Positions 1 through 64,000 of a stretch of 64,000 bases of DNA are shown here, piece after piece (positions within the stretch are counted from its first letter, which is position 1; each line of letters opens with the position of its first letter). The position numbers and the translations under genes are program-made. The DNA comes from Dokdonia donghaensis DSW-1 (lineage in GTDB: Bacteria; Bacteroidota; Bacteroidia; Flavobacteriales; Flavobacteriaceae), in contig NZ_CP015125.1 of the NCBI RefSeq assembly GCF_001653755.1, positions 3,092,194-3,156,193 on the forward strand, written 5' to 3'. Below the pieces are notes generated by a model that did not search any database, was not told the DNA's origin, and worked only from the letters and a program-made list of their open reading frames with translations.

Positions 1-345
1 CATAAGTAAGACCTCACTATCAAAAGGCTTATTAAGGTAATCATCTGCTCCTACTTTATATCCTTTAAGAACATCTTCTTTAAGCGCTTTTGCCGTTAAG
101 AAGATAATAGGAATTTCTTCATTCTTCTCTCTTATTTCTTTTGCCAGTGTAAATCCATCTTTGTAAGGCATCATCACGTCTAAGATACATAGATCGTAAT
201 CATCTTTTTTGAATTTTTCAAAACCTTCCATTCCATTCTTTGCGTGAGTGACGTCGTAGTCATTCATCATAAGGTAATCTTTAAGAACAGTTCCAAAGTT
301 TGGATCATCCTCTACTAGTAAAATCTTTTTGTTTTCAGTTTCCAT
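1..345 (-). CDS. Response regulator, partial; the N-terminal receiver domain is in the window and the C-terminus lies beyond the window start
   Basis: Reverse-strand translation from ATG (revcomp of cat at 343-345) gives METENKKILLVEDDPNFGTVLKDYLMMNDYDVTHAKNGMEGFEKFKKDDYDLCILDVMMPYKDGFTLAKEIREKNEEIPIIFLTAKALKEDV, a CheY-like receiver with the phospho-accepting D in DVMMP. It abuts the histidine kinase stop. Confidence 0.8.
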   Translation of the reverse strand, partial: METENKKILLVEDDPNFGTVLKDYLMMNDYDVTHAKNGMEGFEKFKKDDYDLCILDVMMPYKDGFTLAKEIREKNEEIPIIFLTAKALKEDVLKGYKVGADDYLNKPFDSEVLLM

Positions 346-346
346 A

Positions 347-1978
347 TTATAATGATATTAGTGGTAATTTGATTATGAATGTGCTCCCCATTCCTTTTTC
401 GCTTTCGACAGAGATTTCACCTTGGTGATCATCTACTATTCGTTTTGCATAGGCAAGACCTAAGCCGTGTCCTTTTACGTTATGTATATCTCCCGTGTGC
501 TCACGGTAAAATTTATCAAAGACTTTTTTCTGCACAGTTTTAGACATTCCATCCCCTTTGTCTTTAACCTTTATGATGATAGAATCTTTAGAGTTTTCTG
601 TATACACATCTATTTCTGGCGCTCTATCTTCTGGAGTATATTTTACAGCATTGTCCATTATATTGACTAATACATTTGTAAAATGTGACTCATTTGCAAG
701 CACTGGTGTGCGCTCTGCATCTAGATGTAGGTTTATATACCCACCACGATCTTCAACTAAAAGAAGTATGTGGTTACTAGCATCTTCAACAAGTTCGTGC
801 ATATCAAGGCGCTCCTTGTTAATATCTAATTCATTTTTTTCCAGCTTAGAGATGCGCAGTACATTTTCTACTTGACCGTGCATACGCTTATTTTCTTCTC
901 TTATAAGGCCTTGATAATAGCTTACCTTTTCTGGGTTACTAGAAATCTTTGAGTTTTTAAGTGCATCTAGCGCTAGGTTTATAGTAGCGATAGGTGTTTT
1001 AAACTCGTGGGTCATATTGTTTATAAAATCTGTCTTTATCTGTGATATCTGTCGTTGCTTATTGAGCTGGTGCAATGCACTTGAGTAGGCTATCACTATT
1101 ATAAGTGTAAAAATTATAGATAACCCTGCCATTCCTAATATAGAAGAGATAACAAACTTCTTCTCACCCGGAAACTGAACATATAATGAGTAATCACTTA
1201 CGTCTTTATCGTATAGAAATATAGGCTCGCTATATCCCGGTGCAGACTTTCTAAACTTAAAATCTTTAGATCGTACTCTTGTTAATAGATCATTACTATA
1301 TACTCCAAATTCAAAATCTGTTTCTAGATTGCGCTCTACAAGTTCTATAGTGAGAAGTTTACTAATTTCCTCTTCTGTAACCCGATTATGTATTGGAATT
1401 CTATTTGCTATATCACTTACTATTCCAGAAAATTGATATTTCTCATAATCAAGCAATCTTGAGAACTCTTGTATTCTATTTGATGTTGAGCTTTCATTAC
1501 CGTCTACACTACCCCTTTTTATAATTTGAGTAGATCTTCTGTTTGCATATCTTTTAAACTCTATACTATCCCCTTCTTCTCCTGTAACTCCTGGCGCTGT
1601 GATTTTAAAATCTTCTTGTAAAATGCCGCTACTGTATAAAGTAATCTCATTATTTACGAGATCTTCATTAATGTAAAAGTATTCTTCAAAAGACAACTCG
1701 TCTGGAAGCCCGATACTATCTACCATTTTCTGTACCGGATAATAGTAATCCTCTAGCTCTCGGTTTTCTATTCTATCTACCACAGCAGATAGTGCTTGCC
1801 TAGCGTTAAAGCTAAATTGCTCACGCTTAGCATCTACACTACTAGATATCCAATAGCCTTGTACAAATATGATACCTATGAGCGACAAGCTCATAAGCAC
1901 AATTAATAAGTAAAATAGTTTTTTATTCACTACCCAAAAATAAGATTTTAACATTTCAGGCGGTTTCGGTTTAACCAA
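347..1978 (-). CDS. Sensor histidine kinase (two-component system)
   Basis: One N-terminal TM segment and another around residue 270. H-box HEFKTPIATI. HATPase_c G-boxes DKGDGM and GHGLGLAYAKRIV...GMGSTF. Directly upstream of the response regulator. Confidence 0.85.
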   Translation of the reverse strand: MVKPKPPEMLKSYFWVVNKKLFYLLIVLMSLSLIGIIFVQGYWISSSVDAKREQFSFNARQALSAVVDRIENRELEDYYYPVQKMVDSIGLPDELSFEEYFYINEDLVNNEITLYSSGILQEDFKITAPGVTGEEGDSIEFKRYANRRSTQIIKRGSVDGNESSTSNRIQEFSRLLDYEKYQFSGIVSDIANRIPIHNRVTEEEISKLLTIELVERNLETDFEFGVYSNDLLTRVRSKDFKFRKSAPGYSEPIFLYDKDVSDYSLYVQFPGEKKFVISSILGMAGLSIIFTLIIVIAYSSALHQLNKQRQISQIKTDFINNMTHEFKTPIATINLALDALKNSKISSNPEKVSYYQGLIREENKRMHGQVENVLRISKLEKNELDINKERLDMHELVEDASNHILLLVEDRGGYINLHLDAERTPVLANESHFTNVLVNIMDNAVKYTPEDRAPEIDVYTENSKDSIIIKVKDKGDGMSKTVQKKVFDKFYREHTGDIHNVKGHGLGLAYAKRIVDDHQGEISVESEKGMGSTFIIKLPLISL

Positions 1979-2000
1979 ATGTTAACAAGCGGTAGTTATG

Positions 2001-2600: not shown

Positions 2601-2602
2601 AA

Positions 2603-3556: not shown

Positions 3557-4573
3557 TTACTTTTGGGTCTCTAATGTACTAAAAAAAAGATGTGGATAAC
3601 GCTTTCGCGGAAGCTGTCTCAACCATTTTACTGCTATTGTAGAAGATAGAAACCCCGTACCATAGCCATAAAACTGAATGCCGGTTGCAACAATACTTAG
3701 ACAACCTATCATAAGGCTTTTATTTATGATACTTGAGTGCACAAAAATAATCGCAACATACAATGCGTAAAGCTTGAGCAGTATTGTATTACCAAGCAAT
3801 CCTATCATCAAGCTTGCTACTAAACCTATGATAAACAATGTAGGAAACCAGAAAGTGAGCTTTGCAGTACTAGGGTGCCATAAATTAAGTATAGGTCGGA
3901 CTAGTCCAAACTTATGGACTTGAGTATAAAATTTTTTCCAAGAGATGCGACGTTTATGATAGACAAAAGCCTCTGGTATAAGCGCCGTTTTAAAACCTAG
4001 ATCCCATAATCGCAATACAAGATCTGGATCCTCCCCGGGATGAATATCTCCAAAACCTTTACTAGCTTGAAAAGCCTTTTTAGACAATCCCATATTAAAA
4101 CTACGAGGTTGAAATTTTCCGGCATCTTCACTTCCGCCGCGTATGCCTCCAGTAGTAAAAAACGAAGTCATACTATAACTTATAGCCTTCTGCAAGTTAG
4201 AAAAGTCTGGATGTGCTGCATCTGGACCGCCAAAACAATCTACATATTGCTCCTTTAACTTTTTATCCATCACCTCAACATACTGTGGAGGCAACATACA
4301 ATCTGAATCTAGTATGATAAAATAATTCCCTCTCGCTCTCTCCATCCCATAGTTGCGAGAACTCCCTGGACCTGAGTTAGGCTTTGTTAAATAGGTAATA
4401 TCAAGATCTGGATAAGCATCTATGACTTCTTTACAGGGTATGCTAGAGCCATCTTCAATAATTACAATCTCATAAGGAATAGCAGTTTCTTGCTGGTTAA
4501 AACTAGCAAGGAGTTCGGCCACCTCATCTGGTCGATTATAAACGGGAATAATAAATGAATATGAAAGTTGCAT
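3557..4573 (-). CDS. Glycosyltransferase family 2 with C-terminal TM domain
   Basis: SFIIPVYNRPDEVAELLASF...IIEDGSS and DSDCML are GT2 DxD/ED motifs. The ORF track start at 4627 is probably an N-terminal extension, so I place the start at the MQLSYSFIIP methionine. Confidence 0.72.
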   Translation of the reverse strand: MQLSYSFIIPVYNRPDEVAELLASFNQQETAIPYEIVIIEDGSSIPCKEVIDAYPDLDITYLTKPNSGPGSSRNYGMERARGNYFIILDSDCMLPPQYVEVMDKKLKEQYVDCFGGPDAAHPDFSNLQKAISYSMTSFFTTGGIRGGSEDAGKFQPRSFNMGLSKKAFQASKGFGDIHPGEDPDLVLRLWDLGFKTALIPEAFVYHKRRISWKKFYTQVHKFGLVRPILNLWHPSTAKLTFWFPTLFIIGLVASLMIGLLGNTILLKLYALYVAIIFVHSSIINKSLMIGCLSIVATGIQFYGYGTGFLSSTIAVKWLRQLPRKRYPHLFFSTLETQK

Positions 4574-4656: not shown

Positions 4657-4672
4657 CGCTTTCGCGAAAGCG
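4657..4672. repeat. Iterated palindrome copy (CGCTTTCGCGAAAGCG), intergenic, immediately 3' of fabI
   Basis: Perfect 16-bp inverted repeat containing the core GCTTTCGCGAAAGC. Confidence 0.9.
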
Positions 4673-10744: not shown

Positions 10745-11620
10745 CTATAAAGTGTTTAAAAATGCACCTATCTTTTGGTGTAGGTCATCTGTAGCTTTTA
10801 CTAGTGGTAATCTCACAAAAGGCTTGCACACACCCTGATGCGCTAGCAATGATTTAATACCTGCAGGGTTTCCCTCTTCAAAAATAAGATCTATAAGTTC
10901 AAGTATTTTAAAGTGTTCTTTATACGCTTTCGCGAAAGCGTCATTTAAACCATCATTAATAATCTCTGTAAAAACTTCTGGAATACCTTGACCTATCACA
11001 GATATCACACCACTACCTCCAGCCGAAACTAATGGCAATGAAAGTGTGTCATCTCCAGAGATCACCATAAAATCATCTGGGGTTTTGTGTATTAGCTCAA
11101 GCACCTGTGACATATCACCGGTAGCTTCTTTAATAGCTATAATATTATCAAAATCTCTTGCAAGTCTCGCCGTAGTTTCTGGTAACATATTGCTAGAAGT
11201 TCTACCTGGCACATTATAAAGTACTACTGGCAATGGGCTCGCTGTAGCTACACTTGCAAAGTGCTGGTATATTCCTTCTTGGGTTGGTTTATTATAAGCC
11301 GGAGAGACCGACAGTATAGCTTTTATACCATCATACTTACCATTTTTAAGTTCTGCTACAACTGCAGCTGTATGATTACCTCCTACACCTAGCACGATAG
11401 GCAAGCGCCCCTCTGCTACCTTTATGATATGAGCAACTACGGCCTGCTTCTCTTCACTAGATAACGTAGCACTCTCTGCCGTGGTACCTAGTGTGACAAG
11501 ATAATTTACACCGCCAGAAATACAATATTCCACCAGCTTAGTAAGTCCATTATAATCTATAGACAAATCTTCATTAAATGGTGTAACGAGAGCAACACCT
11601 GTACCCCTTAACTCCTGCAT
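10745..11620 (-). CDS. dapA: 4-hydroxy-tetrahydrodipicolinate synthase
   Basis: GVALVTPF...LVTLGTTAESATLS and Schiff-base lysine region IKEATG. 291 aa. Confidence 0.9.
   Translation of the reverse strand: MQELRGTGVALVTPFNEDLSIDYNGLTKLVEYCISGGVNYLVTLGTTAESATLSSEEKQAVVAHIIKVAEGRLPIVLGVGGNHTAAVVAELKNGKYDGIKAILSVSPAYNKPTQEGIYQHFASVATASPLPVVLYNVPGRTSSNMLPETTARLARDFDNIIAIKEATGDMSQVLELIHKTPDDFMVISGDDTLSLPLVSAGGSGVISVIGQGIPEVFTEIINDGLNDAFAKAYKEHFKILELIDLIFEEGNPAGIKSLLAHQGVCKPFVRLPLVKATDDLHQKIGAFLNTL
10924..10941. repeat. Iterated palindrome copy inside dapA (encodes AFAKA)
   Basis: ACGCTTTCGCGAAAGCGT. The protein reads DAFAKAYK. Confidence 0.9.
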
Positions 11621-12972: not shown

Positions 12973-13892
12973 TACGTAGAACTTTTATAAAACAAACCGC
13001 CGCAGCAACAAGTCTTGTAGGATTAGGAGGGTTAACAATGAGTATGGGTGTAGATACGCTTTCGCGAAAGCAAAAAAAGCACATCACCATTTTACACACT
13101 AACGATGTACATAGCCACGTTGAGCCCTTCCCTTCTAACGATCCAAAATATGCAAATCTAGGTGGTGCTGCCAGAAGAATGGGAGTTATCACGGCTGTAC
13201 GTAAAGAAAACCCAAACACATTACTTCTTGATGCGGGTGATATCTTTCAGGGTACTCCTTACTTTAATTTTTATGGAGGTGAGCTTGAGTTTAAACTTAT
13301 GTCTATGATGGGATATGATGCCGCTACCATAGGTAATCACGATTTTGACAATGGCATAGGTGGGCTAGCTGCACAAATGCCTAATGCATCTTTTGAACTT
13401 CTTACAGCAAATTATGACTTCTCAAATACCATAATGGATGGACTTACAAAGCCTTATAAGGTTTTTGTAAAAGATGGGATACGCATTGGTGTTTTTGGTC
13501 TAGGGATAGAACTTAATGGTCTCGTTAATAAAAATATGTTTAAAGAAACCAAATACCTAGATCCTGTCGAGATGGCCACAGACACCGCAAATACACTCAG
13601 ACAAAAAGAACGTTGTGACATTGTTATCTGTCTTTCTCACCTAGGCTATGAGTATCGCAGTAAAGACATTATCTCAGACGTAGCGCTCGCCAGAAAGACA
13701 GAAGGAATAGATCTTATTATAGGTGGACACACACATACCTTCTTAAAAAAGCCAACTATCGCACAGAACAAATCAGGAAAGTTTGTGCTTATAAATCAGG
13801 TGGGCTGGGGAGGCATTAACCTAGGAAGAATAGATTTTTATCTAGATGATGCAAAAAATATAGAGAGTAGAAGCCTCGTGCTTGATATATAA
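12969..13892 (+). CDS. Metallophosphatase (5'-nucleotidase N-terminal catalytic domain), Tat signal
   Basis: Twin-arginine motif RRTFIK. Calcineurin-like motifs DVHSH, GDIFQG, GNHDFD and GGHTH. ATGA overlap with the preceding gene. Confidence 0.75.
   Translation: MIRRTFIKQTAAATSLVGLGGLTMSMGVDTLSRKQKKHITILHTNDVHSHVEPFPSNDPKYANLGGAARRMGVITAVRKENPNTLLLDAGDIFQGTPYFNFYGGELEFKLMSMMGYDAATIGNHDFDNGIGGLAAQMPNASFELLTANYDFSNTIMDGLTKPYKVFVKDGIRIGVFGLGIELNGLVNKNMFKETKYLDPVEMATDTANTLRQKERCDIVICLSHLGYEYRSKDIISDVALARKTEGIDLIIGGHTHTFLKKPTIAQNKSGKFVLINQVGWGGINLGRIDFYLDDAKNIESRSLVLDI
13058..13071. repeat. Iterated palindrome core inside the metallophosphatase gene (frame LSRK)
   Basis: GCTTTCGCGAAAGC. The protein reads DTLSRKQKK. 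Confidence 0.9.
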
Positions 13893-13893: not shown

Positions 13894-16654
<2,761 letters not shown>

Positions 16655-18170: not shown

Positions 18171-19067
18171 TTAAGCCATACACGCCTTAATCGACCTATC
18201 TTTACCAAACATATCTTTCCTAAGCACAACATCTGTAAAGCCTATATCTTTTAACAACGCTACAGTCTCTCTACCTAGATATTCATTAATCTCAAAATAT
18301 AGAGCTCCTGCGGGTGCTAAGCTTTTACTGGCCAGCTCTCCAATCTTTCTGTAAAAAATAAGAGGATCTTGATCTGAAACAAACAGTGCACTATCTGGCT
18401 CATTGCTCAGCACGTTTGCTCTCATCATTGCCTTTTCTTGCTCGCGCACATACGGTGGATTGCTCACGATAACATTATAAACCTCATCAAGCGCTTGCGT
18501 CTCAAGAATATTCTGGTTATAAAAGTCTACTTTCACCCCATTTGCCTTAGCATTTTGATATGCTGTGGCAAGCGCATTTTGAGAGATATCTACCGCTTCT
18601 ACTGTTGCTTTATTGATATTTTTTGCAAGCGTAATGGCTATACAGCCAGAACCAGTACCTATGTCTAAAAGACGTAGCATATCTTGTGCTTCCCCTTTTA
18701 ATAGACCTTGCGCCACATCATCTATAATCCAGGCAACGAGTTCTTCGGTTTCTGGTCTAGGTATTAACGTAGCAGGATTTACTTGAAAGTCAAGCCCGTA
18801 AAATGACGAGCTACCTGTGATATATTGTATAGGCTCACTCTTAGACAGTCTAGCTGTTATTTCTTCGAGCTCTACACGTTGTGAGGGGTGTATGTTTTGC
18901 TTTCGCGAAAGCGAGATCTCAACCCTATTCATTTTTAATACGTGCTCAAGCGTTAAGAAACAGAGGTTCTCGACCTCTTCTGGCTCATAAAGTGCTGCCA
19001 GTTGCTCCCTAAAATATGCGCGAAAATCGTCTATACTCATAATGTAATAAGCATATGAACGGGACAC
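18171..19067 (-). CDS. prmC: Release-factor glutamine N5-methyltransferase
   Basis: NPPY motif (VSNPPYV) and SAM-binding LDIGTGSGCIA. The true start may be the second Met (around 19040). Confidence 0.82.
   Translation of the reverse strand: MSRSYAYYIMSIDDFRAYFREQLAALYEPEEVENLCFLTLEHVLKMNRVEISLSRKQNIHPSQRVELEEITARLSKSEPIQYITGSSSFYGLDFQVNPATLIPRPETEELVAWIIDDVAQGLLKGEAQDMLRLLDIGTGSGCIAITLAKNINKATVEAVDISQNALATAYQNAKANGVKVDFYNQNILETQALDEVYNVIVSNPPYVREQEKAMMRANVLSNEPDSALFVSDQDPLIFYRKIGELASKSLAPAGALYFEINEYLGRETVALLKDIGFTDVVLRKDMFGKDRSIKACMA
18899..18912. repeat. Iterated palindrome core inside prmC (frame LSRK)
   Basis: GCTTTCGCGAAAGC. The protein reads ISLSRKQNI. Confidence 0.9.
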
Positions 19068-19548: not shown

Positions 19549-20550
19549 GTGAAGATACACAACACCTATATAAAAAGATGTATTGCCCTGGCAAAAAATG
19601 GGCTTCCGGCAGCAATGCCTAACCCCTCGGTAGGAGCAGTACTCGTGCATAATGACACGATTATTGCAGAAGGTTATACAAGTGCATATGGCGGTCCTCA
19701 CGCAGAGGTAAATTGTATCGCTTTCGCGAAAGCGAATACCCCAGAACTCATTGCAAAGTCCACCTTATACGTTTCGCTAGAACCTTGCTCACACTGGGGA
19801 AAAACCCCTCCTTGTGCAGATCTCGTTATAGACTCAGGAATAAAACGCGTAGTGATAGGCACCATAGACCCTTTTGCCAAAGTCGCCGGCGCCGGTATAA
19901 AAAAACTGATGCAAGCTGGAGTTGATGTGACCGTAGGTGTGCTTGATAAAGAATGTCAAGATGTAAACAAGCGCTTCTTCACCTATCACAATGAGAAGCG
20001 ACCATTTATAATTTTAAAATGGGCCGAAACCGCAAATGGTTTTATAGCTCCTGCTACCAGAGATAAGCAAGAACCGGTGTGGATTACAAACTCCCACTCT
20101 AGACAACTAGTGCACAAACTACGTAGCGAGGAGATGGGAATCTTAGTGGGCGGCAAGACCGTTATAGAAGATAATCCTACACTTACCACACGTGACTGGC
20201 ACGGCAGCAACCCGACTAGAATCGTGATTGACACACAAGGCAACCTATCTAAGGAGCTACACATATTTAATAATGAAGCTCCTACAATAGTGCTCAACGA
20301 CAGTGACCCAAAAAGTATCTGTAAAGAGCTTTTTGAGCATAACATACAATCTGTTATTGTAGAAGGTGGCGCTGCTACCCTACAAGGCTTTATAGATACA
20401 GCTTTATGGGATGAAGCGAGGGTGTTTACAGGCCTTACAAACTTTAATGCAGGTATAAAGGCTCCCAAAAAAACAAGCCAATTTACACTACAATCTAGTC
20501 AACACATACAAGGTGACAGGTTAGATACTTACACACGCAGCGACTCTTGA
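19549..20550 (+). CDS. ribD: Bifunctional riboflavin biosynthesis deaminase/reductase
   Basis: CMP/dCMP deaminase zinc motifs HAEVNCI and LEPCSHWGKTPPC. C-terminal RibG reductase domain. Probable GTG start at 19549; the ORF-track ATG at 19510 is an alternative. Confidence 0.85.
   Translation: MKIHNTYIKRCIALAKNGLPAAMPNPSVGAVLVHNDTIIAEGYTSAYGGPHAEVNCIAFAKANTPELIAKSTLYVSLEPCSHWGKTPPCADLVIDSGIKRVVIGTIDPFAKVAGAGIKKLMQAGVDVTVGVLDKECQDVNKRFFTYHNEKRPFIILKWAETANGFIAPATRDKQEPVWITNSHSRQLVHKLRSEEMGILVGGKTVIEDNPTLTTRDWHGSNPTRIVIDTQGNLSKELHIFNNEAPTIVLNDSDPKSICKELFEHNIQSVIVEGGAATLQGFIDTALWDEARVFTGLTNFNAGIKAPKKTSQFTLQSSQHIQGDRLDTYTRSDS
19718..19735. repeat. Iterated palindrome copy inside ribD (encodes AFAKA)
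   Basis: TCGCTTTCGCGAAAGCGA. The protein reads CIAFAKANT. Confidence 0.9.
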
Positions 20551-21435: not shown

Positions 21436-21455
21436 TACGCTTTCGCGAAAGCGTA
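21436..21455. repeat. Perfect 20-bp palindrome TACGCTTTCGCGAAAGCGTA, intergenic, 20 nt 3' of the EamA transporter gene
   Basis: Seen directly in the sequence. Terminator-like position. Confidence 0.9.
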
Positions 21456-24389: not shown

Positions 24390-24409
24390 TACGCTTTCGC
24401 GAAAGCGTA
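24390..24409. repeat. Perfect 20-bp palindrome TACGCTTTCGCGAAAGCGTA, intergenic, 3' of the DUF4870 gene and upstream of padR
   Basis: Seen directly in the sequence. Confidence 0.9.
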
Positions 24410-27116: not shown

Positions 27117-27132
27117 CGCTTTCGCGAAAGCG
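27117..27132. repeat. Iterated palindrome copy, intergenic, 3' of the NTF2-like gene and upstream of the DUF2807 gene
   Basis: CGCTTTCGCGAAAGCG. Confidence 0.9.
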
Positions 27133-28817: not shown

Positions 28818-29020
28818 GTTCGTATATTTACCTAACAATTTTAGCGAAAAGAATTCACTTATGCTAATTTATTTAGCTTTTTCGCAAAAGCGTAATAGCA
28901 TCATCAAACATTCATCAATCAAAAATCAAACATTATGACCACTTTAATTATTTACATCCTGAGCCACTTATAAACAATTGGGTATTTACAGAGACAAGTT
29001 TTCGTATTATTAACCTTCCA

Positions 29021-30199: not shown

Positions 30200-30913
30200 T
30201 TGGACAACTTTATAAATCTCATATTTTCAGAAGTTAATATCATCTTGAGCGTCTTATTGATACTCTTGATCATTTACTGGGTACTTACCTCGGTGAGCGG
30301 TATTGATTTTGACTACGATATGGACATCGACATAGATCTCGATGTAGATGTAGATGCAGATTTTGACATCAACACCGTAGACTCTGGCAGTATGGATTTT
30401 GAAGATGTCTCAAGTGCAGAGGTAGACAGGTCACACGTTGTAAATAAAAGACGTAAACCACTTAAGTGGTGGCAAGTATTTTTAATTTACTTCAACTTTG
30501 TAGGTCTTCCATTTATGTTCACCTTTACGGTATGGGTATTTTTATGGTGGCTTTGTACCCTAGTAACCACAAGTATTACTGGTAGCTATGCAACTAGTTT
30601 TGGTTACATACTTATGTTGAGCTGTATGATCCCTGCTTTGTTCCTTACTAAGATATTTACCACTCCATTTAAGTCATTTTTTAAAAACTTGAATAAAGAT
30701 GGTGATAAAGCTACAGACTTTCTAGGTCGTGACGCCGTGTTGCTATCTACCATTTCTGGAGATAAAATGGGTAACGCAGAGGTACTAGCAGATGGTAACC
30801 CGATGAGTATTTATGTAAAATCACTAGATGGGTCAGAAATACGCTTTCGCGAAAGCGTACTCATCATCAAACAGTCACCAGATAAAAATTACTTTTTAGT
30901 CAGTAAATATTAA
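30200..30913 (+). CDS. NfeD/YqiJ-like membrane protein (flotillin partner)
   Basis: N-terminal TM helix, acidic D-rich linker (DIDIDLDVDVDADFD), three TM helices and a C-terminal OB-fold-like tail (AEVLADGNPMSIYVKSLDGSEIRFRESVLIIKQ). Immediately precedes the flotillin gene, as yqiJ-yqiK does. Confidence 0.6.
   Translation: MDNFINLIFSEVNIILSVLLILLIIYWVLTSVSGIDFDYDMDIDIDLDVDVDADFDINTVDSGSMDFEDVSSAEVDRSHVVNKRRKPLKWWQVFLIYFNFVGLPFMFTFTVWVFLWWLCTLVTTSITGSYATSFGYILMLSCMIPALFLTKIFTTPFKSFFKNLNKDGDKATDFLGRDAVLLSTISGDKMGNAEVLADGNPMSIYVKSLDGSEIRFRESVLIIKQSPDKNYFLVSKY
30840..30859. repeat. Perfect 20-bp palindrome inside the NfeD-like CDS (frame FRES)
   Basis: TACGCTTTCGCGAAAGCGTA. The protein reads IRFRESVLI. 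Confidence 0.9.
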
Positions 30914-33090: not shown

Positions 33091-33112
33091 TTACGCTTTC
33101 GCGAAAGCGTAA
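33091..33112. repeat. Perfect 22-bp palindrome TTACGCTTTCGCGAAAGCGTAA, intergenic between flotillin and the giant AAA+ gene
   Basis: Seen directly in the sequence. 57 nt after the flotillin stop and 70 nt before the giant gene start. Confidence 0.9.
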
Positions 33113-36100: not shown

Positions 36101-38059
36101 CACAAACACAACGAACTAGGACTACTCACCTACGCCCCAGAAATTAGAGCATATGCTCAGTATTTCTGGAACAGCATTGACCCAACTACTCAAAAAACGC
36201 TTAACCAGTCTATAAAGGCTTCGGGAGAGGTGTTGCAGTTTTTTCCAGATGCAAAGGAGTACCAATTTATCGTTGAGACGTTAAGTGAGGAGATACACGC
36301 TTTCGCGAAAGCAGAGTCCCTTTTCTCACCCGATTTAAGTCAGACCATTGCGACCTACATCTTTGATGAGCTTCAAGGTGACACAGAGTTTGTGCGTAGT
36401 AGTGTTGCGGTGCGTTTAAAAGACGCTTTCGCGAAAGCGTTAAAACAACAACAGGCAGATCTTAAGTTTAAGAAAAGTTATGAGTCACTCCCTAGCTTAA
36501 AAGGGAAAGTACAGCTCGTAAAACAGTGGGTGACGGCATTTGTACGCACCCAAGAAAGTCTTACCGATGTGCGCTACGTAGATGAAGTGGTGTGTTTACT
36601 ACTCTTTGAAGATGAGTCGGTTTTAAAAACAAAAGCGGCTTCTCCAAATGAAAAAATCACTGGCTTAAGCGGTGATCACAGCACGATAACCGATGGTGTT
36701 TTCAACTTTAACTACCACGACTTTACGGCAAGGCTCAACTTATTTGTAACAGATCAAGTACCTGCATTTGAAACATTTAAGAAGGCAAAACATACGGTTA
36801 CAGAAGAGTTAAAAGAAGCTTTGAAACTGGACGAATTTAAACCAAGGGTTCTTACATCCTTTGTGCGTAATAAGCTGATTGACCAAGTGTATTTCCCATT
36901 GTTTGGTGATAACCTCGCAAAGCAATTAGGAACCGTGGGTGATAATAAACGTACCGACCGTATGGGTATGTTGCTCCTCATCTCACCACCTGGATACGGA
37001 AAAACCACCCTGATGGAATATATCGCAAACCGTCTAGGACTCGTTTTTGTGAAAATTAACGGCCCAGCGATAGGTCACGAAGTTACGTCTGTAGATCCAG
37101 AAAGTGCTACAAATAGCGCTGCTCGTGAAGAGCTCAAAAAACTCAACGTCGCTTTTGAAATGGGGAATAATGTGATGCTATATCTAGACGATATACAGCA
37201 CTGTAATCCTGAGTTTTTACAAAAATTCATCTCCTTATCTGACGGTACACGTAAGATAGAGGGTGTGTACAACGGGAAGTCAAAAACCTATGACCTACGT
37301 AGCAAGAAATTTTGTGTGATAATGGCGGGTAACCCATATACAGAGAGTGGAGAGAAATTCCGCATACCAGATATGCTTGCAAACAGGGCAGATATTTATA
37401 ACCTGGGAGATATTATAGGAGATACTGAACACCTGTTTAAATTGAGTCTTATTGAGAATTCGCTCACTGCAAATGCGCTATTGCAGCAGTTAAGTAGTAG
37501 TCATTTTGAGGATGTGTATACCTTAATAGACCGCATAGAAAATGGGACGCAAGACAGTCAGCTCAAAGGAAATCACACCGCGCAAGAGGTAGCAGATTAT
37601 ACAAAAGTACTAGAAAAGGTAATCACCATACGTAACACAGTACTTAAGGTTAATGCAGAATACATACGCAGTGCCGCGCAAGAAGATGCCTATCGCACAG
37701 AGCCGTCTTTTAAACTTCAAGGGTCATACCGTGATATGAATAAACTAGTAGCCAAAGTGGTTCCCATTATGAATGACACTGAGCTTGCGACATTGCTCCT
37801 ATCACATTATGAAAGTGAGTCACAAACTCTCACTTCAAGCGCAGAGGCAAACCTCTTAAAATACCGCGAACTCATAAATGCGCTAGATGAAACGCAGCAA
37901 CAGCGCTGGAACACGATGAAAGAAACCTTTGTAAAAAATAATAAACTCAAAGGTTTTGGTGACAAGAACGAGATGGCACAAGTACTCTCTCAAATGATGG
38001 AGTTTACCGAGAATCTAGAAGGGATAAAAAAGGCGCTTGAGAAGGGGTTGGAGAAATGA
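33182..38059 (+). CDS. Giant (1625 aa) protein with a C-terminal AAA+ ATPase module; N-terminal region has no recognisable domains
   Basis: Single uninterrupted ORF. Walker A LLLISPPGYGKTTL (about residue 1260). Walker B VMLYLDDIQH. Sensor-1-like CVIMAGNPY. Arg-finger-like RIPDMLANRADIY, resembling MoxR/dynein/chelatase-type (AAA_5-like) ATPases. The N-terminal 1200 or so residues are partly coiled-coil. Two internal copies of the AFAKA palindrome. Confidence 0.8.
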   Translation: MANETPDIQPKATQTLDGGTYEIIQGRLQKQKTDLQQRLQELNEERKNVFGSLETKLIANDRINTENNCIARDIVSLKNLCLFGYNVHFGLRTDIHLGDVFSAYEFKDNRFEPRDLSLLQDDTFLLDFANLYKYYRNTIFSKFAIIGNYLYMVFQLSDSVTDIKTFKWLIKEDTLQYVDNRSEHEYRFPQQHDFKWQEATRDMHRYGEHAHVSILDKVFVETIGGDLTIKIEDNTDQGKGILDEPVELIDQTLDDGQYRYADLGNLLALEIKPFQEEPRYFVFNNKLKEVQKIQSVKDTCVLLPDDQGIIFPTGYYLQTGEYNIFDNAIPNVKFQQKVSSPNGEDFLYVFYSPEEALYNLMSYNVITQEIKTPIICNGFTVLQDGQLCYFRTENEQTKHHVIQIWQTPFLKGDYMPSQHEDTLLYKIGNKDIVKAMAEVNSLITLLNKEDNYDGLYSDIAKFSKDILDAYYWLPEAETKQLNVPLAEINGAANAAIDEFQKVVQLKRNAAKQTKEVETKASEIFGKIKSTSFKSINDFVALLTQLRSLRGETISLNDIRYVDPTFVKTLEEEIAVQTQKISEKCVQFLLDDKALKPYHDAVAEKKQAMDGIKKVIEAKKLEEEVNQIATDLELLIDIVSNLDIEDTSHSTKIIDDISLIFATINQLKAGIKNKKKSLGSAEAQADFAAQLKLIDQSIINYLDIATTPEKCDEFQTKISIQLEELEGKFADWDEFITLIIEKREEVYGAFEARKNALIEKRNKKAMALKNASERILKGVRKKAESFKTASEINGYFAADLMINKVRDIIQQLKEQEDTGKAEEIETGLKTAREDALRKLKDKLDLYEDGDTVIRLGKHKFGVNKQPLDLTIVLKDGALNYHLTGTDFYQELSNETLLASRDIWDQEFVSETSEVYRSAYLAYKLFNKLDKHTLLEAGDDALLAIVQEESRNDYAEGYVKGVHDVDATKILKVLVHKHNELGLLTYAPEIRAYAQYFWNSIDPTTQKTLNQSIKASGEVLQFFPDAKEYQFIVETLSEEIHAFAKAESLFSPDLSQTIATYIFDELQGDTEFVRSSVAVRLKDAFAKALKQQQADLKFKKSYESLPSLKGKVQLVKQWVTAFVRTQESLTDVRYVDEVVCLLLFEDESVLKTKAASPNEKITGLSGDHSTITDGVFNFNYHDFTARLNLFVTDQVPAFETFKKAKHTVTEELKEALKLDEFKPRVLTSFVRNKLIDQVYFPLFGDNLAKQLGTVGDNKRTDRMGMLLLISPPGYGKTTLMEYIANRLGLVFVKINGPAIGHEVTSVDPESATNSAAREELKKLNVAFEMGNNVMLYLDDIQHCNPEFLQKFISLSDGTRKIEGVYNGKSKTYDLRSKKFCVIMAGNPYTESGEKFRIPDMLANRADIYNLGDIIGDTEHLFKLSLIENSLTANALLQQLSSSHFEDVYTLIDRIENGTQDSQLKGNHTAQEVADYTKVLEKVITIRNTVLKVNAEYIRSAAQEDAYRTEPSFKLQGSYRDMNKLVAKVVPIMNDTELATLLLSHYESESQTLTSSAEANLLKYRELINALDETQQQRWNTMKETFVKNNKLKGFGDKNEMAQVLSQMMEFTENLEGIKKALEKGLEK
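36299..36312. repeat. Iterated palindrome core inside the giant gene (encodes AFAKA)
   Basis: The protein reads HAFAKAESL. Confidence 0.9.
36423..36440. repeat. Iterated palindrome copy inside the giant gene (encodes AFAKA), 124 bp from the previous copy
   Basis: ACGCTTTCGCGAAAGCGT. The protein reads KDAFAKALKQ. Confidence 0.9.
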
Positions 38060-39697: not shown

Positions 39698-39711
39698 GCT
39701 TTCGCGAAAGC
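39698..39711. repeat. Iterated palindrome core 17 nt upstream of the trxB start codon
   Basis: GCTTTCGCGAAAGC in the 5' leader/promoter region of trxB. Confidence 0.9.
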
Positions 39712-41080: not shown

Positions 41081-41505
41081 TGAAGCTACTTATAAGTTTA
41101 TGTACGGCAGGAGTTAGTGTGTTTTTATTTTTCGCGAAAGCGGAAAAAGAAGTTTACACCTCTCAAGACCCACTTGCAGAATCTATAGAACGTGGTGCAG
41201 AGGTATACCAAGACTTTTGTATACAGTGTCACCTAGGTAAGGGAGAAGGTGTAGCAGGAACTTTCCCGCCCCTTGCCGGATCAGACTGGCTCACAGAAGA
41301 TCGCTATAAAGAAGCCATAAAAGCTGTAAAATATGGACAGCAAGGCCCTATTACCGTAAATGGTGTTGCATATAATGGTGTGATGGCAAACCTTGAACTT
41401 TATGAAGATGAGGTGGCAGATGTAATGAACTACATTATGAATAGCTGGGGCAATAAACAGAAAGGAATGATTACTGAAGAAGAGGTGAAAGCGGTGACAG
41501 AATAA
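41080..41505 (+). CDS. Class I c-type cytochrome
   Basis: Heme-binding CIQCH. Signal/TM N-terminus. 1-nt overlap with the PQQ dehydrogenase gene (probable electron-acceptor partner). Confidence 0.75.
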   Translation: MKLLISLCTAGVSVFLFFAKAEKEVYTSQDPLAESIERGAEVYQDFCIQCHLGKGEGVAGTFPPLAGSDWLTEDRYKEAIKAVKYGQQGPITVNGVAYNGVMANLELYEDEVADVMNYIMNSWGNKQKGMITEEEVKAVTE

Positions 41506-44511: not shown

Positions 44512-45100
44512 TAAACTCCTCTTACTGGTAGTACTCTTGTTTTTTTGCGCTTTCGCGAAAGCGCAAGAAGTCCCAGCATCTACACTTCTAGATACCGAGA
44601 CAGTTACTGCCGTAAGTGATCAGGATCCTTATGAACCGTTACGACCTGCAAAGGCTGCCTTTTATGGTGCCGTGTTACCAGGTCTAGGGCAACTTTACAA
44701 TAAAGATTACTGGAAGTTACCACTTGTATACGGCGCACTGGGATCAAGTATTTATGCGGTATCATTTAACTCTAACCAGTCTGAGCGTTTTAGAACCGCC
44801 TTTAAAGAACGTCTCGCGGGACGCATAGATGAGTTTACCACCGTAAATGAAGATGGCACTACTACCGAAATATTTTCTGATGACGCCTTATTAAACGGGC
44901 AAGAGCAATTTAGAAAACGTCGTGACTTGTTTATTTTGGTGTCGGCGGGAGTGTATATACTTCAGATAGTTGAGGCAAATGTAGACGCGCATCTATCGCA
45001 ATTTGACGTAGATGATGAGCTTACCCTTGGACCAGCAATTTACAATGATGATATGGGCCAAACTATGAACTACGGTCTAACCATAAATTATAAGTTTTAA
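44501..45100 (+). CDS. DUF5683-like secreted protein (conserved downstream of parB in Bacteroidota)
   Basis: With a GTG start at 44501 the product begins with a textbook signal peptide (M)QNNKLLLLVVLLFFCAFAKAQ. The ORF-track start at 44384 would overlap parB by 128 nt. The signal peptide is encoded through a 22-bp palindrome copy. Confidence 0.55.
   Translation: MQNNKLLLLVVLLFFCAFAKAQEVPASTLLDTETVTAVSDQDPYEPLRPAKAAFYGAVLPGLGQLYNKDYWKLPLVYGALGSSIYAVSFNSNQSERFRTAFKERLAGRIDEFTTVNEDGTTTEIFSDDALLNGQEQFRKRRDLFILVSAGVYILQIVEANVDAHLSQFDVDDELTLGPAIYNDDMGQTMNYGLTINYKF
44545..44566. repeat. Perfect 22-bp palindrome variant TTGCGCTTTCGCGAAAGCGCAA inside the DUF5683 signal-peptide coding region (AFAKA)
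   Basis: The protein reads FCAFAKAQE. Confidence 0.9.
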
Positions 45101-48122: not shown

Positions 48123-49134
48123 AGGTTGCCATAGAAGGTTTGTGATCGGAAAGATCTATATCTCCATACGTTTCAAAATCTAAGACTTCTAGTTGCTCAT
48201 CTGCAAGTATAAAGTCTATGCGTAATGGTATGATGTCAAACCAGAAGGTTGCTCCTGTACCTGATCCCGCTTTCGCGAAAGCGTCAACCTTATCACTACG
48301 CACTTTGCGATACATATATGAAGTGGCGCTATTATTAAAATCTCCTGCGACAATAACCTTATATGGAGAGGCTGCCTCACTCTGTAAAAACTTTTCAACC
48401 TGATCTTCTTGTTTTTCGAAAGCAACTCCTAGCCTGCCGAGTAGCTTTTTTGAATTTTCCTTTTGTAGATTATTTAAACTAGGCGACAGTCGGAAAGATT
48501 GAAAGTGCATATTATAAACCCTTAATGTATCAGCTTCAACCTTGATATCTGCATAAATACCGTTGTTTCCTTTTTTTGCAAAATCAAGCGAGCCACTATT
48601 TACAATAGGGAACTTTGAAAAAATCACTTGTCCAAATTTGCTATTTGCAGGACGCATTACTTTATGCTTGAATGGATACTTCTTTGCATCTAGCTCAAAG
48701 TCGGGGTGATACTCTTGCAGGCAAACAATATCTGGATTTTGATCTTCTATAAATGCAATGGCGCGTTTACCAACATTAGCCTCTTCTACCCATCCATAAA
48801 CATTAAATTGGCGTACGTTATAGGTTAAGAGCGTGAGTGTGTCAACTTGTTTTGTATCACTACCACCACCAAAGCGTATGAGCGAGAATATATGTGTGAT
48901 CCCTAGTGCTAAGATTACTGCAGATAATAGTAATTGTCTTTTGGCTTTAAATAACCAAAATAAGAAGAATAAAAAATTAATAATAAGTAGCACCGGAAGC
49001 AATAGGCTCAGCACTGACAATGCCGGGAAAATATGTGGCGGAATGTAGGGTAATAAATAACTAAAAAGTAATAGCACCGCGCAGATACTATTTATGAGAA
49101 AAATAAACTTCTCAAGGAGATTTAGGTTTTTCAT
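48103..49134 (-). CDS. Membrane-anchored endonuclease/exonuclease/phosphatase (EEP) family protein
   Basis: Three N-terminal TM helices. EEP motifs LLTYNV, CLQE and a C-terminal SDHKP. Confidence 0.68.
   Translation of the reverse strand: MKNLNLLEKFIFLINSICAVLLLFSYLLPYIPPHIFPALSVLSLLLPVLLIINFLFFLFWLFKAKRQLLLSAVILALGITHIFSLIRFGGGSDTKQVDTLTLLTYNVRQFNVYGWVEEANVGKRAIAFIEDQNPDIVCLQEYHPDFELDAKKYPFKHKVMRPANSKFGQVIFSKFPIVNSGSLDFAKKGNNGIYADIKVEADTLRVYNMHFQSFRLSPSLNNLQKENSKKLLGRLGVAFEKQEDQVEKFLQSEAASPYKVIVAGDFNNSATSYMYRKVRSDKVDAFAKAGSGTGATFWFDIIPLRIDFILADEQLEVLDFETYGDIDLSDHKPSMATFKRLSQ
48268..48283. repeat. Iterated palindrome copy inside the EEP-family gene (AFAKA)
   Basis: The protein reads DAFAKAGSG. 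Confidence 0.9.
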
Positions 49135-53045: not shown

Positions 53046-53065
53046 TACGCTTTCGCGAAAGCGTA
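53046..53065. repeat. Perfect 20-bp palindrome TACGCTTTCGCGAAAGCGTA, intergenic, 14 nt 3' of the ribH stop
   Basis: Seen directly in the sequence. Terminator-like position between convergent or tandem genes. Confidence 0.9.
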
Positions 53066-58311: not shown

Positions 58312-58327
58312 CGCTTTCGCGAAAGCG
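58312..58327. repeat. Iterated palindrome copy upstream of argS
   Basis: CGCTTTCGCGAAAGCG, about 40 nt upstream of the proposed argS start. Confidence 0.9.
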
Positions 58328-58889: not shown

Positions 58890-58893
58890 GATT

Positions 58894-60582: not shown

Positions 60583-60990
60583 TTAAATAAGATCTATAAG
60601 TGATTTATTTTCTAATACTTTTAATGTCTGGTCTCTTACTTCTATCATAAGTATATGAAGACTACACTCCTCTTCTTTGGGACAATCATCACAATGCTCA
60701 TAAAAGTTAAGACTCACACAAGGCAATAACGCAATAGGTCCCTCTAGGGTGCGTATCACAGATGATATCTTTATATCTTCTGGCTTTTTAATAAGGTAGT
60801 ATCCGCCACCTTTACCTTTTTTACTACCTAGGTAGCCCGCTTTACGCATAGAAAGTAAAATACTCTCCAGAAACTTTTTTGAGATATTTTCAGAATCTGC
60901 GATTTCTTGTATAAGCACTGTTGTATTCTCTGGCTTTTTTGCTAGAAAAGTGAGTGCCTTTAATCCGTATTTTGTTTTTCGCGAAAGCAT
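60583..60990 (-). CDS. Rrf2-family transcriptional regulator
   Basis: MLSRKTKYGLKALTFLAK wHTH N-terminus. C-terminal Cys cluster (C..C.....C) consistent with Fe-S-binding Rrf2. Confidence 0.78.
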   Translation of the reverse strand: MLSRKTKYGLKALTFLAKKPENTTVLIQEIADSENISKKFLESILLSMRKAGYLGSKKGKGGGYYLIKKPEDIKISSVIRTLEGPIALLPCVSLNFYEHCDDCPKEEECSLHILMIEVRDQTLKVLENKSLIDLI

Positions 60991-61946: not shown

Positions 61947-62098
61947 AGCTTACCTCGTGTATGATATTTTTATAAGTAGTGGTGAATAAAAAACTATATC
62001 GATTGCGAATTTAGGCGAGAATTTGAGGAATACCTATCTCTTTTTGACTTTTTTATTTACCAAAAAAATCGCTCTAAAAATGCCTGGATTTACGCGCT

Positions 62099-63073
62099 TT
62101 ACAGCTTGGTTATAAGATCATCTATAATCATATCGCCGTGCTCACGTGTATTCTCTATAAAGAGTTTACTTGTGCGCATTCCTGCAGCAATTACCCCAGC
62201 AACATACACACGTTCTAGTGGCGTTTCTAGCGTCTCTTGATTATGAATAGGTGTGCGTGTCTCGTCATCTGTAACAGGCAGGCCTAACTTTTCAAACAAG
62301 GTATAATCTGGCTGATAGCCTATCATTGCGAGTACGAAGTCATTTTCTAAAACGACCTTCCCATCTGGTGTATTTAAAACTACGGTAGATGGTGTTATTT
62401 CTTTTACTGTGGTATTAAAATAGGCCTTTATGGAGCCTTCTTTAATTCGGTTTTCAATGTTAGGCTTGATCCAGTATTTGGTTTTTTCATACAGGCCTTC
62501 CCCACGTATTGCCATTGTCACCTCTGCATTTTTGTAGTAGGTTTCTAGCGCGACATCACAGGCAGAGTTTGCTGCTCCCACCACCAGTATCTTTTGATCT
62601 ACATATGGGTGCGGACTGTCATAAAAGTGTTTTACCTTAGGTAGGTCTTCTCCGGGTACGCCTAGTGCGCGAGCGACATCATAAAAACCGGTGGATACTA
62701 TAACCGCTTTCGCGAAAGCGTTACCCTTATCTGTCTCAATCTCATATCCATCATCTTTAGGCGTCATTTTCTGTACCTGAGTATAGAGTTTTAATCTTAG
62801 TTTCCAAGTGTCTTGCACTCTTCTATAATACTCAAGCGCCTCCTTACGAGTAGGCTTATCTGTATGAGATACAAAAGGAACGCGACCTATTTCTAGCAGC
62901 TTTGAGGTACTAAAAAAAGTCATATTTTCTGGATACCTGTAGATGGTATTTACGAGCACTCCCTTTTCTACAATAAGGTAATTAAGTCCTTTTTTATGAG
63001 CTGCAATACCGCAGGCAAGCCCTATAGGTCCTGCGCCTATTATTATGAGATCGTATGGTGATTGTGCAAACAT
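62099..63073 (-). CDS. YpdA-like FAD/NAD(P)-dependent disulfide oxidoreductase
   Basis: YDLIIIGAGPIGLACG FAD motif and a second Rossmann ILVVGAANSACDVA. Confidence 0.68.
   Translation of the reverse strand: MFAQSPYDLIIIGAGPIGLACGIAAHKKGLNYLIVEKGVLVNTIYRYPENMTFFSTSKLLEIGRVPFVSHTDKPTRKEALEYYRRVQDTWKLRLKLYTQVQKMTPKDDGYEIETDKGNAFAKAVIVSTGFYDVARALGVPGEDLPKVKHFYDSPHPYVDQKILVVGAANSACDVALETYYKNAEVTMAIRGEGLYEKTKYWIKPNIENRIKEGSIKAYFNTTVKEITPSTVVLNTPDGKVVLENDFVLAMIGYQPDYTLFEKLGLPVTDDETRTPIHNQETLETPLERVYVAGVIAAGMRTSKLFIENTREHGDMIIDDLITKL
62705..62720. repeat. Iterated palindrome copy inside the ypdA-like gene (AFAKA)
   Basis: The protein reads NAFAKAVIV. Confidence 0.9.
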
Positions 63074-64000
63074 TATCTATTTCTCCAGAAAAATGGGGTT
63101 AATAAAATAAGTACGGTAAAAAGTTCTAGACGCCCTATGAGCATTAAGAATGCCATCCACCATTTTGCTCCTATAGGTAACCACCCATAACTATCTACGG
63201 GACTTAACCCTCCAAAGGCTGGGCCTACGTTACCTAGTGCAGATGCAGATCCTCCCAGGGCTGTTCTAAAATCAAGTCCCATTGAGGCAAGTACACTTGC
63301 CCCTATAATCCAAGAGAGCATATATAATATAAAGAATGCAAGAATGTTAAATATAATAGAGCGATCTACAGACTTAGCATTATAGCGCACAGGTAATATG
63401 GCGTTAGGATGTAATGTTCTTTTAAACTCTACTATAGCATTACGTATGGTAAGCAGGTGGCGCACAACTTTAATACCTCCCGATGTTGACCCTGCAGATC
63501 CACCTAAGAACATAAGTCCAAAGAAAATAACGGTAAGAAAAGGTGTCCACATTGTGTAGTCTGCCGTGACAAATCCTGTGGTTGTTATAACTGCTAGCAC
63601 TTGAAACAACCCGTGACGAAAAGCAGCTTCTGCCTTACCCCACACCATAGGGTGCTCTATTGTAGACAGACTAAGGTCTGCATTAAAATACATTACTAAT
63701 GACACTAAAATACCAAAGCCAAAGACAAAAGCCATATAAAGTCTAAACTCCTCATCCTTTAAAATCTTCTGGATTTTACCCTTAAATGCAAAATAGCTTA
63801 ATACAAAGTTTGTACCCGCTAGAAGCATAAAGAACGTTATAATATACTGTATAACTGGCTTATCATTCCAGTAAGCAACACTTGCATTTTTTGTAGAAAA
63901 TCCTCCAGTTGAGAGCGTACTCAATGCGTGGTTTACCGCATCAAAAAATGACATACCAGCCAGCTTAAGCAAGATGGTTTCAATCACTGTAAAGCTTACG
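63073..64000 (-). CDS. TrkH/KtrB-family potassium transporter, partial; the N-terminal part lies beyond the window end
   Basis: Selectivity-filter-like STGGFS, GGSAGSTSGGIKV and LGNVGPAF. The ORF-track Met at 63987 is internal; the family is about 480 aa. Confidence 0.72.
   Translation of the reverse strand, partial: VSFTVIETILLKLAGMSFFDAVNHALSTLSTGGFSTKNASVAYWNDKPVIQYIITFFMLLAGTNFVLSYFAFKGKIQKILKDEEFRLYMAFVFGFGILVSLVMYFNADLSLSTIEHPMVWGKAEAAFRHGLFQVLAVITTTGFVTADYTMWTPFLTVIFFGLMFLGGSAGSTSGGIKVVRHLLTIRNAIVEFKRTLHPNAILPVRYNAKSVDRSIIFNILAFFILYMLSWIIGASVLASMGLDFRTALGGSASALGNVGPAFGGLSPVDSYGWLPIGAKWWMAFLMLIGRLELFTVLILLTPFFWRNR

Follow-up and report, generated by a model that had tools for sequence, protein, structure and literature searches.

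Highly iterated palindromes have been a puzzle for 30 years and are known almost only from cyanobacteria. In that phylum, HIP1 (GCGATCGC) is under selection and quasi-periodically spaced (PMC5861425); a link between HIP1 and a methyltransferase has been proposed (PMC4390886), and so, more recently, has a role like that of the uptake signal sequences (USS) and DNA uptake sequences (DUS), tied to transformation (bioRxiv 2024.09.10.611283; 10.64898/2026.06.24.733823). Here we describe like behaviour in another phylum, the Bacteroidota, and in a cultivable marine genus: a 64,000-nt stretch of the chromosome of Dokdonia donghaensis DSW-1 (NZ_CP015125.1, forward-strand positions 3,092,194 to 3,156,193), henceforth the window, carries the palindromic 14-mer GCTTTCGCGAAAGC in 19 perfect copies. 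This is a highly iterated palindrome of the Dokdonia clade, whose copies originate by substitution and are evenly spaced; genes tolerate them, and spacers are their preferred place. It is apparently an undescribed counterpart of HIP1 and of the DNA uptake sequences: searches of the literature for the 14-mer, for a Dokdonia palindrome and for highly iterated palindromes in flavobacteria gave nothing relevant, and uptake sequences in Flavobacteriia were found raised as a possibility only.

Abundance and form of the palindrome

The original prediction, made by a model from the letters of the window, had put at least 19 perfect copies far above chance; the exact count is indeed 19, as against 0.00 expected in dinucleotide-preserving shuffles and 0.00015 under a third-order Markov model, the latter being the check it had proposed, run here on the window. 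Its further points, that copies lie both between and within genes and extend to longer perfect palindromes, also stand: 11 copies are in open reading frames (ORFs) and eight are intergenic, and the full consensus is the 20-bp palindrome TACGCTTTCGCGAAAGCGTA, with nearly invariant inner 14 bases, 15 of the 19 copies extending to the 16-mer CGCTTTCGCGAAAGCG, seven to an 18-mer, five to the complete 20-mer and two to 22 bp. All 22 occurrences of TTCGCGAA in the window fall within TTTCGCGAAA.

A scan of the window allowing up to two mismatches gives 24 matches where 0.2 are expected, adding five copies to the perfect ones. Three of these, at 14916, 41128 and 60975 with two mismatches each, were among the degenerate copies already proposed; a fourth such proposal, put at about 28876, really lies at 28878 and has three mismatches, while the copies at 3601 (one mismatch) and 7992 (two) had been overlooked. 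In 1.07 Mb of sequence, 284 copies are exact, while one mismatch is present in 29 and two mismatches in 42, a ratio of exact to one-mismatch forms of about 10:1; the CpG transition GCTTTCGCAAAAGC is among the commonest variants one step away.

Genic copies occur in all three phases and, as first noted, favour the mild peptide reading AFAKA: seven of the 11 encode it (in dapA, in ribD, twice in the giant 1625-aa gene, at 44549, at 48269 and in ypdA) and a single one encodes FRES (30843), but LSRK is read three times (13058, 18899 and 58313) rather than twice. In a larger coding set (n=80) the readings are AFAKA 40, FRES 23 and LSRK 17.

The motif is no local artefact of the window, since six more copies lie in the 17 kb of flanking sequence (8 kb and 9 kb) from the same genome (JSAQ01000001.1, GCA_000769435.1, where the window occupies about 1,101,311-1,165,310). 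Confinement to the window would have pointed to a local duplication; instead, copies also occur in other Dokdonia genomes and in at least 120 metagenome loci. Window and flanks together hold 25 copies in 81 kb of contiguous genome, a mean of one per 3.2 kb, which, extrapolated from this measured density, would give about 1,000 copies in a whole genome of 3.2 Mb.

Restriction to the Dokdonia clade

In a dapA-centred sample of 80 species genomes the motif is present in two loci only, both from Dokdonia (L123, with six copies in 20.9 kb, and L124, with five). The 78 other Flavobacteriaceae loci of this sample (1.47 Mb) contain no copy, nor any comparable dispersed palindrome, showing tandem heptamer repeats only. 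Among syntenic relatives reached through dapA homologues, L205, L206 (Dokdonia sp. Hel_I_53), L328 and L329 have two to four exact copies each, L203 (11 kb) has one, and L207 has one together with five copies of the variant ATTTTCGCGAAAGC; the next relative, L330, in which dapA is 63% identical and synteny differs, has none. In the Dokdonia-clade dapA loci of 16-21 kb (window, L123, L124, L205, L206, L328, L329) exact copies thus number two to six each. The closest named relative of the window is Dokdonia sp. Asnod2-E02, with dapA 96% identical. A scan of metagenomes with the 18-mer recovered 245 copies in 885 kb from at least 120 loci, and, going by the names of contigs and the identifiers of samples, all of the matches listed seem to be of marine origin; anchoring on the 18-mer inflates the consensus at positions -1 to -3 and, somewhat, the intergenic share in this sample. 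The motif is lineage-specific to the Dokdonia clade and genome-wide, in keeping with the original prediction and with the comparison with related Flavobacteriia that it had called for: every sampled Dokdonia-clade locus has it and the 78 outgroup loci do not. Its presence or absence splits a clean clade from the sister genera, so that phyletic profiling is feasible, and it offers a practical marker for binning Dokdonia DNA.

The two-mismatch form ATTTTCGCGAAAGC is found in L207 (2706, 3527, 4862, 10682, 16972) and L329 (3026, 4403), mostly at sites orthologous to perfect copies in other species. Both contigs come from assembly ERZ25039505, whose contig naming suggests long reads, and L207 has split genes; the variant is probably real and no sequencing artefact, since TARA scaffolds and an isolate genome have it too. 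We rejected the idea that it is a lineage "dialect", as there is no replacement consensus and the sites are mostly orthologous.

A viral scan with the 14-mer returned mostly single chance matches and a few genuine (pro)phage contigs with two or three copies, and did not discriminate between the models weighed below. In L039 (2735-2748) and L056 (4210, 7851, 10955) the copies lie in (pro)phage regions, marked by head protease, tape measure and integrase genes, at near-host motif density. One copy in L039 is 8 nt from the stop codon of the integrase gene, where an attachment site might be.

Conservation of individual copies

The element is perfectly conserved and constrained at individual sites. 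All six sites are intact over the 20.9 kb in which the window and L123 are 93% identical, and among homologous pairs spanning a copy the exact 14-mer is kept in 69 of 106, with flanks 67-97% identical; copies are still perfect at orthologous positions whose flanks have dropped to 67-80%. The intergenic copy next to adh_short (4657) is present in L123, L205, L206, L328 and L329 and, as a variant, in L207, which makes 6-7 species that keep it, within a spacer that is otherwise unalignable; the dapA copy (10924) is conserved in L123, L124 and L205, the intergenic copy next to EamA (21436) has orthologous copies in L123, L205 and L207, and that at 27117 has one in the metagenome locus L272. Conservation is limited to about 10 bp on either side of the centre, the arms beyond being at background identity (a rough estimate from 15 pairs under strict filters).

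Among the clearest one-step differences that separate close relatives is the CpG transition named above, seen between 93%-identical loci. Such one-step decay bears out part of the original suggestion that the degenerate copies are decaying. The near-copy in ligA, TTTTTCGCGAAAGC, runs counter to it, being identical in Dokdonia-clade loci (the window, L123, L124, L203, L205, L207); with conservation across the clade, constraint from the encoded protein is more likely than decay. It may be kept for its coding content or be functional itself.

Origin of copies by base substitution

In dapA, the Dokdonia-clade peptide G-AFAKA-Y occupies the same alignment columns as GKVKEAY, KKVDDAY and the like in more than 60 other Flavobacteriaceae proteins, with no indel at the motif and several residues changed by non-synonymous substitution. 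L124, a divergent Dokdonia locus, has unrelated sequence of equal length where ribD and prmC carry the motif; moreover, the ribD copy aligns without insertion to IESAR of PDB 2hxv, the prmC copy shows no gap against the HemK structure PDB 2b3t or against L124, and the ypdA copy aligns gap-free to VYECR of PDB 7a7b. The only site with a length difference is that in the metallophosphatase (13058), which differs by 12 nt from L124 in a variable N-terminal region. When orthologues with and without the motif are paired, about 7 of the 14 motif bases are identical as against about 74% of the flanks, the motif bases being the more diverged. The lack of a length change at dapA, ribD, prmC and ypdA indicates that copies were written by substitution and not inserted, which, along with arms that are not shared between copies, overturns the earlier idea of a small propagating repeat. 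A search for arms shared between copies, as a sign of transposition or patch conversion, gave only a slight excess of similar arms, mostly from orthologues. In one pair of loci with 84% flank identity (L321 at about 1893, and L250), one member has a 20-bp copy and the other a different small palindrome, GCAATGGATTGC.

Placement and spacing

The unbiased 81 kb contains 14 genic and 11 intergenic copies, i.e. 1.21 per kb between genes versus 0.19 inside them; the larger, 18-mer-anchored set gives about 1.0 versus 0.13, so that intergenic density is roughly 6-8 times genic density. By kind of spacer, the density per kb is 1.43 in divergent, 1.18 in convergent and 0.66-1.17 in tandem ones, and in the last the copies lie a median of 42 nt past the upstream stop. 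The similar density across the three kinds of spacer argues against a terminator or promoter role.

The 25 copies have a mean spacing of 3.2 kb with a coefficient of variation (CV) of 0.52 and a largest gap of 6.3 kb; under a uniform null the probability is about 1e-4 for this CV and about 8e-4 for this gap. Null models in which spacers were weighted 8-fold, 20-fold or used exclusively made the result stronger. In the window only one pair of copies lies less than 500 bp apart (36299 and 36423, 126 bp). Avoiding close pairs would not by itself put a ceiling on the largest gap, so that selection for coverage is what the data indicate.

Arms, inserts at the centre and folding

Across 256 non-redundant copies (512 arms), the 5' side of the core on each strand has only 4-10% C from -19 to -3, versus a background of 19%, together with raised G and peaks of T at -13, -10, -7 and -4, i.e. 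with a period of three. The G/T-only words GTTGT, GGTTG and TGGGT are several-fold enriched in the arms, and words containing GTAG are also enriched. The C-poor pattern holds in spacer copies as in deep-coding ones, and the arms are constrained in composition, not in sequence. It is not a by-product of neighbouring gene ends, as arms facing gene 3' ends and those facing gene 5' ends are equally C-poor; nor is it the stem of a longer hairpin, since arm complementarity beyond -3 within copies equals the expectation from between copies. Hidden small ORFs ending in YAFAKA and a stop were likewise rejected, the upstream open frames of each phase being short, and shared descent of the arms does not account for the pattern. 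Outgroups without the motif show a skew in their orthologous dapA arms too (5' side C 10%, 3' side G 9%), and it is stronger in motif-bearing genomes (5' side C 2%, 3' side G 4%); this suggests that a favourable context is in place before a copy arises.

Downstream arms, such as those at 27133-27180, 33113-33160 and 24410-24440, run into A/C-rich, G-poor leaders of the AATCAATCA/ACAACAAC type before the next gene. Four of the outgroup dapA loci (L140, L143, L154, L159) carry tandem 6-7-nt repeats (GAGTAGT, ATTAGTC, AGAGGTT, ATCAACC) that are C-poor on one strand, a composition recalling that of the arms.

A related insert of 36-46 nt lies exactly between the half-sites at three loci in three lineages: L203 7259-7314 (L204 2105-2160), L207 8521-8576 and L291 4024-4146. 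The inserts share the sequence CACTTC..GCTCAGCATAAACTTCGGCA; that of L203/L204 adds 12 in-frame residues to dapA (AF, GSAEVYAERSRS, AKA), that of L207 is in the metallophosphatase gene, and that of L291 is tandemly duplicated. Apart from rare special cases, split copies made of half-site, gap and half-site are essentially absent. In L315, at about 6848-6920, CGCTTTCGCGAAAAT and ATTTTCGCGAAAGCG flank an AT-rich segment of about 35 nt; to judge from the sequence, the central TTTCGCGAAA seems to have been copied to both sides of an insertion, implying, if so, a staggered cut at the palindrome.

The fold of the 20-mer as single-stranded DNA is a stem of 8 bp closed by a CGCG loop (-6.3 kcal/mol), and each strand of the 20-mer ends in GCGAAAGC, a very stable DNA mini-hairpin, the properties of which have been reviewed (PMC13037366). 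The even spacing, the higher density between genes, the arm pattern and, as a minor item, the centre-targeted inserts are new features; the original prediction mentions neither even spacing, nor strand-symmetric C-poor arms, nor an intergenic enrichment independent of orientation.

Comparison with described elements

The analogy with HIP1 and USS drawn in the original prediction holds for over-representation, the mixture of genic and intergenic copies, orthologous conservation exceeding that of the flanks and non-random spacing (over 81 kb). Like HIP1, the Dokdonia motif is a hugely over-represented perfect palindrome within and between genes, with conservation at orthologous sites that implies selection, a quasi-regular distribution and a CpG-rich centre that is a possible methylation site; we know of no cognate methyltransferase. 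Unlike HIP1, it is 14-20 bp long rather than 8 bp, has another sequence, belongs to a single genus-level clade of Bacteroidota, occurs about once per 3.2 kb rather than up to once per gene, is strongly enriched between genes and has C-poor, triplet-phased arms. A different sequence and a different host set it apart from HIP1 proper; by analogy it would be a HIP/USS-like element, the uptake function being the inferred part.

With the USS and DUS of Haemophilus and Neisseria it shares a lineage-specific distribution at about one copy per 1-3 kb, common to related species, an origin by point substitution in tolerant frames and variable protein segments, and a weaker extended consensus in the flanks. 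Even spacing is also reported for USS. The Dokdonia motif departs from these in being palindromic and longer and in having far fewer near-miss copies, and it does not show their asymmetric core of 9-12 nt.

Repetitive extragenic palindromic sequences (REP) and their composites (bacterial interspersed mosaic elements, BIME; REPIN) are likewise dispersed palindromes that number in the hundreds, are commoner in spacers and persist at orthologous sites. They are, however, imperfect, extragenic only, often arranged as inverted doublets of stem-loops, sequence-variable and linked to the REP-associated tyrosine transposase (RAYT), whereas the Dokdonia copies are perfect singletons with an invariant core, and more than half of those in the unbiased stretch (14 of 25) are genic. 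No RAYT (Y1 transposase) gene was noticed in the 81 kb, where linkage to RAYT was not specifically tested. The Rickettsia palindromic elements (RPE) and miniature inverted-repeat transposable elements (MITE) resemble the motif as repeated palindromes that enter ORFs without destroying them, but these insert about 100-150 bp and so make the host protein longer. The Dokdonia host proteins are not lengthened: dapA, ribD, prmC and ypdA give no contrast of insertion and empty site, and no sequence is common to whole elements, the arms being alike in composition only. Finally, parS, the Noc-binding sites (NBS), the SlmA-binding sites (SBS) and the MatP site matS are 14-16-bp palindromes, bound by dimers, scattered and sometimes genic. 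A genome has between a few and about 70 of them, restricted to certain regions, as against some 1,000 evenly spaced copies (extrapolated) in Dokdonia, and direct comparison with TGTTNCACGTGAAACA and ATTTCCCGGGAAAT gave no match.

Functional interpretation

On the strength of these parallels we tentatively propose that the palindrome may be a recognition tag in DNA, maintained by selection in the manner of HIP1 and USS, that most likely serves self-DNA uptake and/or recombination. Copies arise by in-place base substitution where the context resembles the arms and the encoded peptide is tolerated, then stay perfect at orthologous positions through speciation, and are so spaced that no stretch beyond about 6 kb lacks one. 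A two-fold-symmetric (dimeric), sequence-specific factor would read the tag in DNA, and purifying selection, or selection along with a conversion-type drive, would keep it, because each few kilobases of chromosome would have to carry a copy. Its part would be to mark self DNA for uptake and/or homologous recombination, as suggested by the parallels with USS/DUS, by the selection on HIP1 and its periodicity, by the evidence tying HIP1 to transformation, and by Riemerella, a member of the class Flavobacteriia that is naturally competent and favours its own DNA (PMC7965970). If so, this would be the first uptake-type signal in Bacteroidota and a possible aid to transforming these bacteria; the length of 20 bp suffices for direct use as bait for the binding factor. 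Several points weigh against the proposal. To our knowledge competence has not been described in Dokdonia, and the known uptake sequences are non-palindromic and 9-12 nt long as against a perfect palindrome of 14-20 bp. A plain model of duplex binding or of uptake does not predict arms that are strand-asymmetric and triplet-phased, the near-host density in (pro)phage contigs is neutral at best for an uptake-driven motif, and a role in nucleoid or chromosome structure would fit the even spacing and conservation equally well.

Such a role, as the regularly placed site of a clade-specific nucleoid or chromosome-organising protein (ParB/Noc-, SlmA- or MatP-like, or an anchor for a topoisomerase or gyrase), would amount to a new nucleoid-organising system, and we regard it as unlikely on balance. 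A perfect palindrome of 20 bp fits a DNA-binding protein that acts as a dimer, placement is even and indifferent to gene orientation, copies are conserved both in and between ORFs, and the periodicity of HIP1 led to a like inference (PMC5861425). Yet the motif has no parS match, and such a role does not account for the C-poor 5' arms on each strand. At one per 3.2 kb, the copies are also 10-100 times denser than the sets of parS, NBS, SBS and matS. The polarity of the arms on each strand and the inserts at the centre are hints of a step, by cutting or in single-stranded form, beyond both the uptake and the nucleoid models. The signal might be read on single-stranded or cut DNA, with the centre nicked, broken or folded as a hairpin (GCGAAAGC on each strand): either the G/T-rich 5' arms would end 3' at the centre and load a RecA-type filament or a primase/restart factor, or the arms would bear the trace of deamination (C to T, A to G) during recurrent single-stranded episodes. 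Evidence in favour comes from arms symmetric on both strands, with their T peaks, that have neither mutual complementarity nor sequence conservation, from the inserts placed exactly between half-sites in three lineages, from the apparent duplication in L315, which suggests that the centre is a cut or insertion point, and from the hairpin energy with its mini-hairpin ends (PMC13037366). We nonetheless judge it decidedly improbable, because the dapA context of outgroups was skewed before the motif existed, favouring a context preference over a pure mutational footprint, and deamination does not explain a period of three. The element is also short, at 14-20 bp, for a cruciform or for cleavage of the SbcCD type. 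A bolder combination, quite unlikely in our estimate, would make each copy a recombination or processing station undescribed in bacteria or, equivalently, part of the first self-DNA uptake/recombination tag system in Bacteroidota. Here a programmed nick, a break or a hairpin would form at the palindrome centre, the C-poor, G/T-rich, triplet-phased arms would be 3'-ending strands that load a RecA-type or other filament with a 3-nt register, and the resulting hotspot, every 3 kb or so, would double as the landing site of the tiny 36-nt insert family.

Three further explanations are each contradicted by specific results. The motif might be a functionless by-product of sequence-specific repair or methylation, Vsr-like biased correction turning near-matches into motif; this would account for the great scarcity of one- and two-mismatch forms, for origin by substitution rather than insertion, and for CGCG and TCGCGA in the core with GCTTTCGCAAAAGC among the commonest one-step variants. 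It is nevertheless very unlikely, as such drive gives no cause for even spacing or a capped largest gap, a specificity of 14-20 bp goes far beyond known methylase or Vsr sites, and several non-synonymous changes have been fixed in dapA. Spread of a REP/REPIN- or MITE-like mobile element by a transposase such as RAYT is largely refuted and highly improbable: it would fit a dispersed palindrome enriched between genes, a TA-CGC...GCG-TA consensus that could conceal a TA target duplication, and the GTAG-containing words of the arms, but not the genic majority in the 81 kb, the constant length of dapA, ribD, prmC and ypdA, the unshared arms, the want of doublets or clusters, the stability of orthologous positions over deep divergence or the even spacing. 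Least credible of all is an RNA-level hairpin acting as terminator, stabiliser of mRNA 3' ends or Rho-entry signal. The fold is stable, tandem-spacer copies follow the upstream stop closely (median 42 nt), and the 3' arm has more C than G, like Rho utilization (rut) sites; but the flanks, T-rich 5' and A-rich 3' with no T-run after the hairpin, are opposite to those of an intrinsic terminator, divergent spacers have the highest density (1.43 per kb), half of the copies are genic and copies are not limited to gene 3' ends. An Rfam scan of the window returned no family matches.

Coordinates of the copies

Table 1. Perfect and imperfect copies of the palindrome in the 64-kb window.
Positions	Form	Location	Strand	Peptide	Remark
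4657..4672	perfect 16-bp palindrome	intergenic, 10 nt past adh_short stop
10924..10941	18-bp palindrome	dapA	minus	AFAKA
13058..13071	14-bp copy	metallophosphatase, N-terminal region	plus	LSRK
18899..18912	14-bp copy	prmC/hemK	minus	LSRK
19718..19735	18-bp palindrome	ribD	plus	AFAKA
21436..21455	20-bp palindrome	intergenic, 22 nt past EamA stop
24390..24409	20-bp palindrome	intergenic, tandem genes either side
27117..27132	16-bp palindrome	intergenic, tandem genes either side
30840..30859	20-bp palindrome	237-aa ORF, near C-terminus	plus	FRES
33091..33112	22-bp palindrome	intergenic, upstream of 1625-aa gene
36299..36312	14-bp copy	1625-aa gene		AFAKA
36423..36440	18-bp palindrome	1625-aa gene		AFAKA	flanks unrelated to those of 36299 copy
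39698..39711	14-bp copy	divergent intergenic region
44545..44566	22-bp palindrome	238-aa ORF, N-terminal hydrophobic segment		AFA/KA
48268..48283	16-bp palindrome	343-aa ORF	minus	AFAKA
53046..53065	20-bp palindrome	intergenic, 16 nt past a stop codon
54533..54548	16-bp palindrome	divergent intergenic region
58312..58327	16-bp palindrome	619-aa ORF, codon 10	minus	LSRK
62705..62720	16-bp palindrome	ypdA/Bdr-like reductase	minus	AFAKA
3601..3614	one mismatch, GCTTTCGCGGAAGC				same variant in L123
7992..8005	two mismatches, GCTTGCGCGAAAGT
14916..14929	two mismatches, GCTTTCGCGAAAAA	ligA			near-copy
28878..28891	three mismatches, TTTTTCGCAAAAGC				followed by GTA
41128..41141	two mismatches, TTTTTCGCGAAAGC
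60975..60988	two mismatches, TTTTTCGCGAAAGC	Rrf2-family gene start

The copy at 44545-44566 encodes LVVLLFFC-AFA-KAQEVP, placing an A-x-A where a signal peptidase site would be expected.

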